The position numbers were made by a program, and so were the translations under genes. The notes under the pieces are model-generated. The model was not told the origin of the DNA, searched no databases, and was given only the letters and a program-made list of their open reading frames with translations. A DNA stretch of 64,000 bases from Eledone cirrhosa (lineage: Eukaryota), in contig OZ024758.1 of NCBI GenBank assembly GCA_964016885.1, positions 17,174,001 to 17,238,000 of the forward strand, given 5' to 3'. The first letter of the stretch is position 1. Every line of letters begins with the position of its first letter. This document shows positions 3,505 to 47,500 of the stretch, one piece after another.

Positions 3505-3695
3505 TTAATATAGATGAGATTCTACAGGACTAGAACTGTTTCATTCTTTAGAAATCATCAGGAATCGCTGATGATTTCTAAAGAATGAAACAGTTCTAGT
3601 CCTGTAGAATCTCATCTATATTAAAACTTTTATACTCTGCAATGTATTGAGTACCTTACTTACTGTGGTTACCTCCGATTCAACCCGGAATAACG
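3505..3695. mobile_element. Hammerhead-bearing Penelope-like mini-element (family H1): 57-bp perfect inverted arms plus ~70-nt tail, in (TA)n
   Basis: Arms 3505-3561 and 3568-3624 around loop GAATCG. The right arm continues into a tail shared with 56860-56993. Confidence 0.75.
3518..3566 (-). ncRNA. Type I hammerhead ribozyme (H1)
   Basis: Minus strand: GATTC-CTGATGA-T-TTC taaa GAA-T-GAAA-CAG ttctagtc CTG-TA-GAATC. Stem I is GATTC/GAATC and the cleavage triplet is GUA. There is a U.U at the base of stem II. Confidence 0.7.
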
Positions 3696-4040
3696 TATAT
3701 ATATATATATATATATATATATATATATATATATATATATATATATATATATATATATATATATATGTGTGGAAGTTAGTAAAATCGAAGTTGTGGCGCT
3801 CAGCCAGCATCCACGAAAGAAAACAATATTCGGAGCTTTTCACAAAGCACACAATAAGAAGATATTGATAAATTGCTAAGTTATATCTTAGAGTAATAAA
3901 CATACGTTAAAGGCATGACAAATTGAAAGCTGTGGTTAAGGGGACAGAGCCACAGAGGCCACCACAACAACGAAAATATAATCAGGTTAAATAACAAAGT
4001 AAATACGAAGTAATTTCAGATGTTAAAGTCATTTATTGAT

Positions 4041-4122
4041 AAAGCTGTGATACATATTTCATATGATGACAGTGGCCAAGCGATTCCGCCTAACCAGTGC
4101 CATGATCTCATCAGACAGCTTC
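4041..4122 (-). ncRNA. Minimal type I hammerhead ribozyme with long stem II (family H3)
   Basis: Minus strand: AAGCTGT-CTGATGA-[gatc ATGGCA c TGGTTAGGCG gaat CGCTTGGCCA c TGTCAT catat]-GAAA-TATGT-ATC-ACAGCTT. Stem I is 7 bp, the cleavage triplet is AUC, and stem III is very short and quasi-palindromic. An inverted repeat links ~4010-4043 and ~4215-4249. Confidence 0.7.
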
Positions 4123-4521
4123 TTACATGATAAGGTTACGTTCTCAAGGCAATCTAAATTGAAACAACAAAGGAACTGACACAGATGATGTTCTTCAAGC
4201 CTTCACTCATCCGTTTATCAATAAAAGACTTTAACATCTGAAACTACTCACATTTTCTTATTATAAAATACTCTGTCACTCCTATGTGGAAAAAGAGTGT
4301 TGTGTGCTTATTTTGAATTGCATCAATGTTTACCATAAGTATATATAAATATAGATGATGATGATGGTGGTGGTGGTGGTGGTGGTGGTGATGCTGATGC
4401 TGCTGGTGGTGGTGGTGGTGGTGGTGGTGGTGGTGATACTGCTGCTGGTGGTGGTGGTGGTGGTTATGGTGGTGATGATGATGATGATGATGATGATGAG
4501 ATATATATGTATATATATGTG

Positions 4522-4921
4522 AAGGTACATGGCTTAGTGGTTAGAGCATTGGGCTTGCAATCAAAAGGTTGTGAGTTCAATTCTCAGACCAGGTGATGTG
4601 TTGTTTCCTTGAGCAAGACACTTTATTTCACATTGCTCCAGTATACTCAGCTGTAGAAATGAGATGGAATGATAGGGACCCCAGTCCCTATCATTCCATT
4701 GCAATGTGGTTGTGGAGGTGCCACGGCAAAAAATCACCCAGCACTCACTGTAAATGAGGTTGGTGTTAGGAAGGACATCCAGCTGTAGAAATCAAGCCAG
4801 AATCAGTTCCCGTCCCACCCTTGCAAGACAAGGTCAGCTGACCAGACACTGCCCATAACAGGACAACCCGTCTAACCCATGCTAGCGTGGAAGAACAGAT
4901 GTAAAACGGTGATGATGATGA
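4522..4921 (+). mobile_element. tRNA-derived SINE S1 with chimeric double tail (family C tail start, then family B tail)
   Basis: A/B boxes at 4529-4584; CCCGTCCCACCCTTGCAAG (~4808-4827) is followed by GGTCAGCTGACCAGACACTGCCC...CCCATGCTAGCGTGGAAGAAC and (GAT)n. Confidence 0.85.
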
Positions 4922-5097
4922 TATATCTTCGATGACAGGTCTCTGCAACATCGCATAAGATGACCCAAGTGTAAGTTACATTCTCACAATCACATCACCA
5001 CAAACATATACCCTCATAGCTCTCCAGATATGAATCCATTAGATTAACCCTTTCACATTTACATATGATGATGATGATGATGATTACTCTATATTTA

Positions 5098-43513: not shown

Positions 43514-43965
43514 ATTTCAGACAACACTAAGAGAATTTTAAAAGTGACTGTGCAGCTACACGTGGGAGAGAGAAGTCACAGCGTGTTTAAGGGCAGTGAA
43601 CCAGTGGCCTCTGAGGAGCGAGCTGCTAGAAAGGGCAGCCCAAAACCACTCAGAGAAGTGTGCCAACCAAACAGAGAGATAGGAAAGACTGTTATAAGGA
43701 GCGAAATATCACGATAAATTAATGGAGCCATAGGCCCTCGTCATTCCCTGTAAATAATGTGCTCAAAGGAGAAGAAATCCTGAGCTCTTTAAAATACAAT
43801 ATGTTGAAAAGGTAACACACCAGAGAGAGATATACAGTGCGCTATCAATAAAACAGGGAAAAAAACCACCAGTGTATGGAATCTATAACCTATGAAAGGC
43901 AGACTATAGACACGATAATTAAAAATATAAATTAAAGCGTAAATAATTACCTCTATAACTATATA

Positions 43966-44045
43966 ACACACGTACAAATCCAAAGAGATGTTTCGCCAGT
44001 AATTTGTTGACAGAAATAGAAGAACCTCAGTTCATCAGCGTGTGT
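43966..44045 (-). ncRNA. Type I hammerhead ribozyme, copy 2 (cleavage 43973/43972; 2-nt deletion in stem III)
   Basis: Same core. Plus strand reads GAGATGTTTC versus GAGATCTGTTTC in the other copies. Base of stem II is weaker (ACTG/TGGC). Confidence 0.75.
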
Positions 44046-44507
44046 AAGGCTATACATTTCAGACAACACTAAGAGAATTTTAAAAGTGACTGTGCAGCTA
44101 CACGTGGGAGAGAGAAGTCACAGCGTGTTTAAGGGCAGTGAACCAGTGGCCTCTGAGGAGCGAGCTGCTAGAAAGGGCAGCCCAAAACCACTCAGAGAAG
44201 TGTGCCAACCAAACAGAGAGATAGGAAAGACTGTTATAAGGAGCGAAATATCACGATAAATTAATGGAGCCATAGGCCCTCGTCATTCCCTGTAAATAAT
44301 GTGCTCAAAGGAGAAGAAATCCTGAGCTCTTTAAAATACAATATGTTGAAAAGGTAACACACCAGAGAGAGATATACAGTGCGCTATCAATAAAACAGGG
44401 AAAAAAACCACCAGTGTATGGAATCTATAACCTATGAAAGGCAGACTATAGACACGATAATTAAAAATATAAATTAAAGCGTAAATAATTACATCTATAA
44501 CTATATA

Positions 44508-44589
44508 ACACACGTACAAATCCAAAGAGATCTGTTTCGCCAGTAATTTGTTGACAGAAATAGAAGAACCTCAGTTCATCAGCGTGTGT
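44508..44589 (-). ncRNA. Type I hammerhead ribozyme, copy 3 (cleavage 44515/44514)
   Basis: ACACACG-CTGATGA-...-GAAACAGATCtctttgGATTTGTA-CGTGTGT. Confidence 0.82.
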
Positions 44590-47500
44590 AAGGCTATACA
44601 TTTCAGACTACACTAAGAGAATTTTAAAAGTGACTGTCCAGCTACACGTGGGAGAGAGAAGTCACAGTGTGTTTATTGATAGCGCACTGTATATCTCTCT
44701 CTGGTGTGTTACCTTTTCAACATATTATATTTTAAAGAGCTCAGGATTTCTTCTCCTTTGACCACATTATTTACAGGGAATGGCAAGCGCCTATGGCTCC
44801 GTTAATTTATCATGATATATATATATATGTCTGTATGTGTGTGAATATGTGTTCATTCTATGAAAAATAGACCTAATGATCAAGAATAATAATTTATTCA
44901 TATATAATGTCTGATATTTAAACTACAGTTATGTGTGATATTAAGTTTCTTAAACCTGATAGCAATATGGTCATAGAAAATAGTATCACATATGTAATAT
45001 TGTGAGTTTCTGAACACATTATAGCAGAGGCAGTATAGCTAGAGTGTCAGGCAATATGCTTTGCATTATGCATTATATACTTATGTCTGGATACTGGATT
45101 GGCAGTATCGGTAGCGGGTCAGACGCCATGCTTTGCAACATAGAGTTACAGCCCTTTACGGTCTGAGTTCAAATCCCGTCGAGGTTAACTTTGCCTTTCA
45201 GCCTTACGGGGTTGATAAAATAAAGTACCAGTAATGCACTGGGATAATTGCTGGCCTTGTGCCAAAAGCAGAAACAACTATATAGTTATGTCTCATTACA
45301 TTCTGAGTTCAAATCCCGCCGAGGTTAGCTTTGCCTTTTATCCTTACGGGGTCGATAAAATAAAGTACCAGTAATGCACTGAGGTCAATTTAATTGACTT
45401 TCCCCCTTTCCCTTCAAATTGCTGGCCTTGTGCCTGAAGTAGAAACAATTATTAATCTGTTATTTGGACCATAAATTATCAAAGACTCTTCCATAGAATT
45501 CTGAGGGAATATTTTCAAATAAATATAAATATTGTAAAATTAACATCTTTGGATTGAAGACCCAGGGGTAGTTGCAAGCGAGTTGGTATGGCAGGGGATA
45601 CCCAACCTCTTAAAAGTGTGAAATGCTGACCTAACTATACTGTTTAGATCATGTGTATTGAAAAGCATTTTATATTTTGGACATGGAATGCAAAACTGTA
45701 TGTAAGCTGTTTTACAAATTTACGAAGGTTTAACAAAATATCTTATATAGAGAGCAAAAGGAAAACTAAACTGGGTTTTACACCCACATATACAGATACA
45801 CACATGCACATGCATAAGTATTCATATAAAAACATACACATGCATATATAGCTATAAATATATTTATATACAGACATCAATGTCTATATATGTATATATA
45901 TATATATATATGTATATATATATATGTGTGTGTGTGTTTGTGTGTGTGTGTGTAATTTGTACACTAAGTATCTGAAATATACATGTATACAAGCATACAT
46001 ACATATACATAATACATAATACATACATACAGAAAGAAACACACACACACACACGTATATATATATATATATATATATATATATACCCATATGTATATAT
46101 ATATACATGTGTGTGTATGTCAGTGTATGTATATGAGTTGGTATGTGATAATTAGTTGTCTATATATGTTGGTAAATGTGTGACTATGTGTCACTATTTT
46201 CTGACTATATGTGAGTGCAATTGAGCATAAGCGTAAGCATAGACCTGCAAGCTATTTAAATATTGCTTCAAGCATTATTTTTCCTATTGTCAGTTTTAAT
46301 TACTTCTCTTTGGCAATATTTAATTAATAAACACTATTCTTTAATTATTATTAATAACTTTAACAAACATTTATTGTCAGTCAAAATTATTTCTTAATAT
46401 TTTATTTATAGTTTTGTGTAAATATCTTAAACATAAATATATAAATAAGCAATATGATAAAAGTTGACAAAATCTAGAATATTCTGTATTAAGTTCTTAG
46501 CTATTCCATACTGTAGAATATAGAAATGCTGCAAGCAATACTTTCTATCTGAATCACCCCAAAACTGCGGAATAGAAATAATTGTTGCTACTTTTAGCAC
46601 AAGGCCAGCAATTACCCAGTGCATTACTGGTACTTTATTTTATCGACCCCGGAAGGATGAAAGGCAAAGTTAACCTCGGCGGGATTTGAACTCAGATCAT
46701 ACAGGGAGGTAACTCTATGCTTCAAAGCATGGCATCCGACCCTCTACCAATACTGCTAATCCACTGCGGAATAGAAATAATTGTCTCTACTTTAGGCACA
46801 AGGCCAGCAATTACCCAGTGCATTACTGGTACTTTATTTTATCGACCCCGTAAGGATGAAAGGCAAAGTCAACCTTGGCGGGATTTGAACTCAGATTGTA
46901 AAGGGGCGTAACTATGCTGGAAAGCATGGCGTCCGACCCTCTACCGATACTGCCAATCTACTGCGGAATAGAAATAATGATTTCTAGTTTTGTCAAAAGG
47001 CCAGCAATTTTAGAAAGGTAGAGAAAGTTGATTATCAACCTCAGTACTTGACTGGTACTTTATTTTATCAACCAAGACATAATGAAATGTAAGGTTGATC
47101 CCAACTGAACATGAACAGAAATAAGAACATATTTAGCTGGAACAAAATACCTTAACCCTTTAGAATTTACATTACTCTATATTTACTGTTGTATTTTTGC
47201 AGTAAAGGCTTTATCTTACATAATGATCTCATGTAATATTAAATCTATGAGATTTTGATATTATTTATTTTGAGAACAATAACTTAACATCAGTATGAGA
47301 GGCCAGTTACAGCTGGTTTGAACAGAAAGAGGTGATAGAATTCTGGCTGGATATGGCTGGTTTAAATGCTAAAGGGTTAACATCAGTATGAGTGGCTGGT
47401 TATGGCCGGTTTAAACAGAAAGTGGTGAGAGAATTCTGGCCAGATATGGCCAGATTAAATGCTAAATGGTTAATGTTTAACTCTTTACCATTTACATTAT

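Follow-up and report, generated by a model that had tools for sequence, protein, structure and literature searches.

We analysed 64,000 nucleotides of Eledone cirrhosa DNA (hereafter the window; GenBank assembly GCA_964016885.1, contig OZ024758.1, positions 17,174,001 to 17,238,000 of the forward strand). Sequence comparison identifies several short insertions in it as pseudo-long-terminal-repeat (pLTR) remnants of Hydra-clade Penelope-like elements (PLEs). Full-length units of these elements carry two copies of a small bulged hairpin, H1 and H2, and the insertions end a few nucleotides before one copy or the other. Judged from its sequence, the motif is a real, clade-wide and duplicated cis element. 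We consider it probable, at roughly two chances in three, that both hairpins position the starts of reverse transcription as RNA docking sites, a reading suggested by the sequences and by analogy with a PLE studied in vitro.

Palindromic and inverted arms were located by comparing the window with itself. The insertions belong to five families, A to E, and their features are as follows (window coordinates):

3505-3695, plus strand: family A insertion between (TA)n runs; palindromic arms 3505-3624, then a tail
3568-3601, plus strand: putative minimal hammerhead core of family A (pattern match); inverted counterpart at 3528-3561, minus strand
3634-3652, plus strand: H1 of family A (ACTC, upper stem TGC-GTA, TT bulge, GAGT)
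28991-29359, plus strand: family B insertion; arms 28991-29268, then a tail
29274-29298, plus strand: H1 of family B
29698-29907, plus strand: family C insertion; arms 29698-29840, then a tail
29846-29869, plus strand: H1 of family C
30566-30678, plus strand: family D insertion; 11-bp palindrome 30566-30587, then a tail
30595-30613, plus strand: H1 of family D
39495-39686, minus strand: family C insertion, the second in the window, with arms at 39572-39686 and H1 at 39543-39566
43253-44675, minus strand: family E non-coding tandem units of about 543 nt each; short end near 43253
43433-43496, 43977-44038 and 44519-44582, minus strand: hammerhead-like cores in the family E units
43761-43785, minus strand: H1 of family E; further copy at 44303-44327
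43662-43702, minus strand: H2 of family E, its GAGC one base short here; further copy at about 44204-44244
44672-44816, plus strand (to 44818 in the self-comparison): inverted arm of family E that bears the tail; its H1 (44739-44763) is mutated; stops at the long end
56866-56993, plus strand: family A copy, the second in the window, with hammerhead core (56866-56899), H1 (56932-56950) and tail but no inverted arm

Family E H2 is intact in other copies. No remnant of the family A open reading frame (ORF) was found within the window. An old, diverged family-A-like insertion lies at 39305-39412, with hammerhead cores at 39305-39331 (minus) and 39349-39381 (plus); no tail was seen, and its terminal (TA)n run is common to the second family C insertion. 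A 62-nt palindrome at 56262-56323 lies within a repeat resembling a short interspersed element; there the motif and flanking (TA)n are absent.

The original prediction, made from the letters of the window, had listed five hairpins, and all five are present exactly where it placed them. Those at 39543-39566 (minus), 44303-44327 (minus) and 56932-56950 (plus) had been overlooked. The layout that it described, inverted arms running to (TA)n with a tail on one side, was recovered at 3505-3624, 28991-29268, 29698-29840 and 43253-44816 but not for the insertion at 30595, which has just the 11-bp palindrome 30566-30587; long arms exist in other family D copies. The family E hairpin at 43761-43785 is real but sits inside an internal unit of the tandem array, and the H1 of the tail-bearing outer arm is instead the mutated copy at 44739-44763.

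The motif is a stem-bulge-stem structure: NCTC, a variable upper stem, a 2-nt bulge on the 3' side, GAGN, and then a conserved ACTC-like flank. The lower stem has 4 bp, the bulge is mostly TT, TC or TA, and the loop ranges from 3 to about 60 nt. The TT of the originally listed pattern is the 3' bulge below a further covarying upper stem. The hairpin had correctly been placed just past the short end; that full-length units have another one beyond the long end had gone unnoticed. In these units H1 and H2 lie between the hammerhead and the start codon. In read-through copies of families C, D and E and of the L162 family, H2 follows the long end after 3-9 nt; it stands about 34-82 nt upstream of the predicted start codon. 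H1 and H2 are 71-93 nt apart in the families of this genome and 55-83 nt apart in metagenomes, and the tail length, about 55-93 nt, matches this spacing. The tail thus lies between two fixed ends and runs without a break into the 5' portion of the following unit or ORF, as in the PAc element discussed below. Most copies of the non-coding family E units retain both hairpins.

As a bare pattern the motif is just modestly more frequent in the window than expected by chance. There are six ACTC-type matches against a mean of 1.61 in shuffled sequence (1 of 100 shuffles reached six) and three GCTC-type matches against 0.61 (2 of 100 reached three); the match at 14061-14087, inside an unrelated repeat array, looks like a chance occurrence. 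The significance of the motif lies instead in its position past the short end. A motif-independent de novo search for arms with a tail was run on an unselected genome sample (97 stretches of 10 kb at round-number positions, 970 kb) and on other loci. It kept 154 of 420 candidates; the filter removed 266, 185 of them as internal TA runs and probably too many, so that cluster counts are lower bounds. RCTC...GAGY was found just past the short (arm) end in 16 of 32 clusters containing random-sample members, versus 177 of 9989 random positions. Clusters 5, 8, 11 and 12 (e.g. L222:8873-9415, L175:1426-2807, L235) are (TA)n families with fixed short ends and 41-79-nt tails and without a GCTC/GAGC motif. 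Endonuclease fragments near them, linked to them by proximity only, have CCHH-like residues and look like other PLE clades. These clusters may use a different signal, and the motif appears to be Hydra-clade-specific.

The positions of the insertion ends were measured as the first T of the flanking (TA)n run relative to the hairpin. Altogether 311 of 345 junctions lie 2-16 nt before H1 or H2, and in the random sample 60 of 68 do (34 at H1, 26 at H2); 45 ends not at TA and 26 family B long ends fall outside these counts. The modal offsets are -6 and -9 in family A, -8 and -6 in C, -7 and -8 in D, -11 and -6 in E, and -8 in B, and all 8 metagenome junctions lie at -10 to -7. The two sharp end positions that had been expected were therefore obtained, since the mapped junctions cluster before H1 and before H2. 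The inverted pairs of the random sample join a short and a long end in 22 of 24 cases, the remaining two having one unclassified end, and no short-short or long-long pair was seen. Among tail-selected loci and the window there were 109 short-long, 3 short-short and 1 long-long pairs, with 23 others having read-through or unclassified ends. The distance from the hammerhead core start to H1 is 66 nt in family A versus 253 nt in family E, so the ends follow the hairpin and not the ribozyme; a model in which distance from the hammerhead sets the ends was rejected for this reason.

A TA step stands at -7 or -6 of 39 of 50 metagenome hairpins, versus 1-8 per position at -30 to -9. This enrichment exactly at the end positions, together with the closeness of H2 to the start codon, would also fit hairpins that have another function within the 5' leader (control of translation, RNA stability, a promoter or hammerhead regulation), the ends being set only by nearby TA-like stretches. 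We regard such a role as quite improbable. The leaders are A+T-rich with many TA steps, yet the ends cluster at just two sites, and most copies of the non-coding family E units keep both hairpins. The hairpin sequence is also independent of hammerhead helix III across 20 elements (a pairing between the two was ruled out, as no covariation was found), and the combination of a short with a long end would be left unexplained.

To identify the elements, 30 copies were gathered for each of the five families. In families A, C, D and E, read-through copies continue past the tail, on the same strand, into a reverse transcriptase (RT)-endonuclease ORF. The family C tail runs into H2 and the ORF (L034/L219), family A is joined to a 713-aa Hydra-type ORF (L308/L310), family D has H2 and a 741-aa ORF (L293/L311), and Hydra-type ORF pieces lie downstream of the ~543-nt unit of family E (L067/L315). 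The A and D loci were retrieved by requiring only two G/C bases past the tail end, not the motif. For family B no read-through copy and no ORF link were found, two pattern searches returning only (TA)n-flanked ends. In loci L254, L255 and L272, family A forms non-coding tandem units in which the tail and the first ~25 codons are rejoined to the hammerhead region, a retrozyme-like arrangement.

The intact A and D ORFs contain YRDD and a C-terminal [IV][VI]Y..Y[IV]G (GIY-YIG-type) motif. As in the Hydra clade, there is a single ORF with the RT followed by a C-terminal GIY-YIG domain in an element of less than about 3 kb. RWR (RWK-type, replacing GxKF/Y) stands at residue 37-38 in both; GxKF/Y is absent from the A ORF, and the D ORF has one GVKF at 84. 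DKT (a modified DKG) is at 116 in A and 118 in D and is present in the C and E pieces too, which also contain RLRW. The CxCX5C linker, CxxC and CxH were found in the A and D ORFs; in the A ORF no cysteine pair was seen by eye within the GIY-YIG core, and CCHH is absent. These features in the linked ORFs bear out the Penelope identity that had been proposed. The C-terminal endonuclease and the Hydra motifs also ruled out an assignment to Naiad. Across six families, 371 ends lie at TA runs versus 45 elsewhere, in line with insertion into (TA)n. Pattern matching gave hammerhead core motifs in A, E and most metagenome loci, and B and D appear non-canonical. In the latter two families a hammerhead-like CTGA.GA...GAAA core was seen whose helix III is misplaced relative to the canonical form (L312/L313 upstream of D; window 29050-29096, minus strand). 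A Pfam scan of five ORF stretches matched no family, and many homologues bear PF26215 or PF28514. Among the 150 of 229 Rfam matches listed for the window there was no hairpin family and no hammerhead family; they were low-complexity microRNA-type matches and one tRNA-like match.

Relatives were obtained by a protein search, which gave 1292 at E <= 1e-20 among 7994 candidates scored. An alignment of 60 relatives was used to fetch 78 metagenome loci and 13 loci from metagenome-assembled genomes (MAGs), chosen by protein only, which we take as host or plankton DNA; no relative was found in viral contigs, and the matching sequencing runs listed included no RNA run. Loci L397-L409 are Hydra-clade animal retroelements in bacterial MAG contigs and in a gill-symbiont assembly, most likely through host contamination. 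The 61 ORF starts preceded by 60 nt or more of sequence formed 39 clusters, for which 170 nt upstream were scanned. The motif was found in 34 of the 39, with two hits in 18 (in one of them, L344, a single hairpin was counted twice) and one in 16, some regions being clipped by contig ends. Controls inside the ORFs gave it in 2 of 39. A reverse-complement control gave 16 of 39 and is uninformative for this motif finder because the lower stem is self-complementary.

Among the 52 metagenome hairpins the first upper pair, which the finder did not demand, reads C-G 35 times and T-A 15 times. It is thus Watson-Crick in 50 of 52 with the 2-nt bulge register, versus 0, 0, 8 and 7 in other registers and at most 40 in 10000 shuffles; upper pairs 2 and 3 also exceed every shuffle. 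The lower stem is GCTC/GAGC in 47, GCAC/GTGC in 2 and TCTC/GAGA in 2, and the 3' flank starts with ACT in 44 of 52. The compensatory lower stems occur in L400, L402, L357 and L360, at times unlike between H1 and H2 of one element. In the motif clusters of the E. cirrhosa genome, where the lower stem ACTC/GAGT occurs, the nucleotide following RCTC forms a Watson-Crick pair with the third nucleotide ahead of GAGY in 21 of 23, versus 6, 3 and 3 in other registers. We also aligned 47 instances in MAFFT without guidance (4 window hairpins and, from the 52 metagenome hairpins, the 43 whose middles measure 9-17 nt). RNAalifold returned from this alignment the identical 7 pairs, 5 of them showing double changes; 92.1% of cells pair versus 76.8 in shuffled alignments, none of 500 shuffles reached the covariation score, and slid registers scored far lower. 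The covariation that had been predicted is thus supported by shuffle tests and by folding of the unguided alignment, both made without a tree. On a tree of 23 elements (trees were built from Hydra-type sequences alone), H1 upper pair 1 changes five times on each side, and all 23 rows are concordant. Folding prediction gave the lower stem a probability above 0.5 in 42 of 51 instances.

The near-invariant lower stem (47 of 52 in metagenomes) and the lack of significance in the tree-aware test are what one would expect if the motif reflected common ancestry or chance only, with no selection on structure. This is very hard to reconcile with loops and upper stems that are unrelated in sequence across families and yet keep one pairing register, in elements whose proteins are only about 40-55% identical.

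Several results weigh against the proposal that both hairpins position reverse-transcription starts as RNA structures. By the finder rule 5 of the 39 metagenome clusters have no motif, and the lower-stem covariation is partly built in, as pairing there was demanded by the finder. The tree-aware sign test gave p 0.5; it is underpowered and cannot be significant, because only 2 independent pairs lie on well-supported branches. The predicted stability is weak, with the first upper pair above 0.5 probability in just 20 of 51 instances, and the window copies of families A, B and C favour other folds. G-U versus A-C combinations stand at 8:5 in metagenomes, 8:2 in the genome itself and 16:7 pooled, counts that do not settle the strand. 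Family A, though its long ends are sharp, has only GCAC-5 nt-GTGC at the H2 position, with neither bulge nor upper stem, and no H2 was found for family B in pattern searches for read-through copies. By eye, the published consensus of Hydra-1_Obim has no motif and that of Hydra-1_Amil no clear one (PMC8557442, sequences consulted), and the part of the PAc RNA that can be read in Fig. S1 of PMC11167929 lacks the motif, so that the in vitro finding carries over by analogy only. Finally, 71 of 86 arm pairs are near-symmetric, which is also compatible with fold-back copying.

The location of H2 bears on where the motif would act. It lies behind the long end, and insertions stopping at that end leave it out; both ends are thus marked by the motif. 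A signal that fixes an end and is missing from the resulting insertion would most simply act in the template RNA, which makes this likelier than an endonuclease signal at one end. H1 shares the form and geometry of H2, and we infer the same role for it. The cis-signal role suggested in the original prediction is thus supported at the sequence level, but its wording, a signal fixing the second integration end, was too narrow, because families C, D, E and L162 have an equivalent hairpin beyond the long end too.

In the mechanism we propose, the RT-endonuclease would nick both strands of a (TA)n tract, and each DNA 3' end would anneal to the UA that precedes a hairpin by 6-7 nt. A 3' end from either strand could pair with this conserved UA, (TA)n being its own complement. 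A start at H2 would give the tail-bearing arm, whose tail includes H1, and a start at H1 would give the short arm. The two complementary DNAs (cDNAs), copied from one donor, would then be linked head to head through their truncated ends. RNA structure formation, protein binding, priming and joining are all steps that we infer. Variants common to both arms of one insertion are in keeping with a single donor (30 of 78, 27 of 45 and 49 of 127, versus 3-9% under random pairing). A tentative extension, possible though we would not bet on it, is that the tandem hairpins dock a dimer of the RT-endonuclease, one subunit each, with each subunit priming the opposite (TA)n strand on the UA at a fixed distance upstream. 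The pair would then be a portable, clade-wide twin-initiation signal, and non-coding units could be mobilised in trans.

Shared variants would also arise if reverse transcription started once, at the long end, and the cDNA folded back and copied itself, the short end being a cut by the GIY-YIG endonuclease or a synthesis stop at H1 in the DNA intermediate. In 71 of 86 pairs the arms indeed reach within 15 nt of one upstream point, with variants in common. In the sections consulted, PMC8557442 attributes the tail to endonuclease-mediated resolution, and PMC11167929 cites that the D. virilis endonuclease required the tail for cutting a plasmid. This course of events comes near to the idea in the original prediction; we nevertheless hold it unlikely. 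H1 and H2 are alike in structure, distance to the end and upstream TA, which suggests one kind of event at both. In 7 of the 86 pairs the upstream reach of the short arm exceeds that of the tail arm (in 8 the tail arm is longer), although later central deletions could account for some; in the window, the family E short arm measures 1.4 kb versus 147 nt for the tail arm, where central deletions are again possible. ORF-bearing metagenome copies also stop at the short end (L323, L332, L334, L360, L378 and L401), and both PAc sites are initiation sites in vitro according to the consulted part of PMC11167929.

The window, part of a 3.0-Gb genome, also holds other repeats, and its repeats have a cephalopod-like look. 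Long RT-like ORFs lie at 781-2004 (minus, 407 aa), 53386-55860 (minus, 824 aa) and 56906-58627 (plus, 573 aa), which we take to be RTE-type long interspersed nuclear elements (LINEs) from their look. Near each of them lies an inverted fragment from its own 3' region, or else a further copy faces it (521-887 versus 5099-5465; 54086-54926 versus 57072-57912). Homogeneous tandem arrays occupy 34705-36956 (96/190-nt units), 37150-38603 (307 nt), 51481-52025 (93 nt) and 42224-42702 (18/48 nt).

Published accounts already cover the inverted pLTR and the tail with its two starts; the hairpin and its duplication are the new part within the literature searched. No description of either was found there, including PMC8557442, PMC3846280, PMC4209133, PMC7229834 and PMC7936874 (term searches) and the consulted part of bioRxiv 10.64898/2026.07.22.740005; subscription papers (e.g. 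Arkhipova 2006, Pyatkov 2004), figures and Repbase/Dfam entries might mention it. The words 'hairpin', 'stem-loop' and 'bulge' do not occur in the main text of PMC8557442. Among the consensus sequences consulted in that paper, inspected by eye, the motif occurs twice at the 5' end of Hydra-1_Ajap (sea cucumber), once, as H1, at the 3' end of Hydra-2_Ajap (sea cucumber) and Hydra-2_Amil (coral), and partially in Hydra-1_Crog (copepod).

The choice of template and start sites by PLEs has been addressed by one in vitro study, which found two internal starts without defining their determinant. Because the motif is short, covarying and duplicated, and stands at a constant distance from each end, it offers exact and testable mutations, compensatory rescues and spacing shifts; it also explains tail length as hairpin spacing. 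In marine invertebrate genomes it could guide the annotation of Hydra-clade ends and of their non-coding passengers, and it points to a minimal RNA for determining the structure of the complex. A twin-initiation signal, if real, would explain the inverted-arm-plus-tail shape of Penelope insertions. PLEs are the sister group of telomerase, and twin docking would parallel the way telomerase RNA defines its template.

RNA stem-loops recognised by RTs are known from stringent LINEs (the 3' stem-loop of eel UnaL2), the R2 3' untranslated region, hepadnavirus epsilon and the template-boundary elements of telomerase. In these systems a small structured RNA beside the first templated base recruits or positions the RT. 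Here, in contrast, the hairpin lies downstream of a proposed internal start and is present twice, each copy corresponding to one insertion end.

The Hydra clade of PLEs with a C-terminal endonuclease is defined, in the consulted part of PMC8557442 (Craig et al. 2021), by RWR/RWK, DKT, CxCX5C, a C-terminal GIY-YIG with CxxC and CxH, a hammerhead, (TA)n targets and an inverted pLTR with a tail. The families described here share these hallmarks where linked ORFs were found, the hammerhead as a putative core motif; the tail, given there as 30-40 bp and ascribed to endonuclease resolution, is about 55-93 nt in ours. A close parallel is the Poseidon element PAc of Anolis, in which the protein both cuts the two target strands and extends them (Frangieh et al. 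2024, PMC11167929, sections consulted). Two internal RNA start sites bound its genomic tail, and the RNA 3' of them is required. On our reading the two systems would share the two internal starts bounding a tail, AT-rich targets and a predicted dimer. PAc differs in that it belongs to another clade and has one of its starts inside a stem-loop rich in AC, and no conserved or duplicated binding motif was defined for it in those sections. Family E also resembles the animal non-LTR retrozymes (bioRxiv 10.64898/2026.07.22.740005; PMC7229834), being likewise a non-coding hammerhead tandem unit derived from a PLE pLTR. No cis signal by which retrozymes are mobilised is named in the consulted parts of these works; the two hairpins that family E keeps would supply such a signal.

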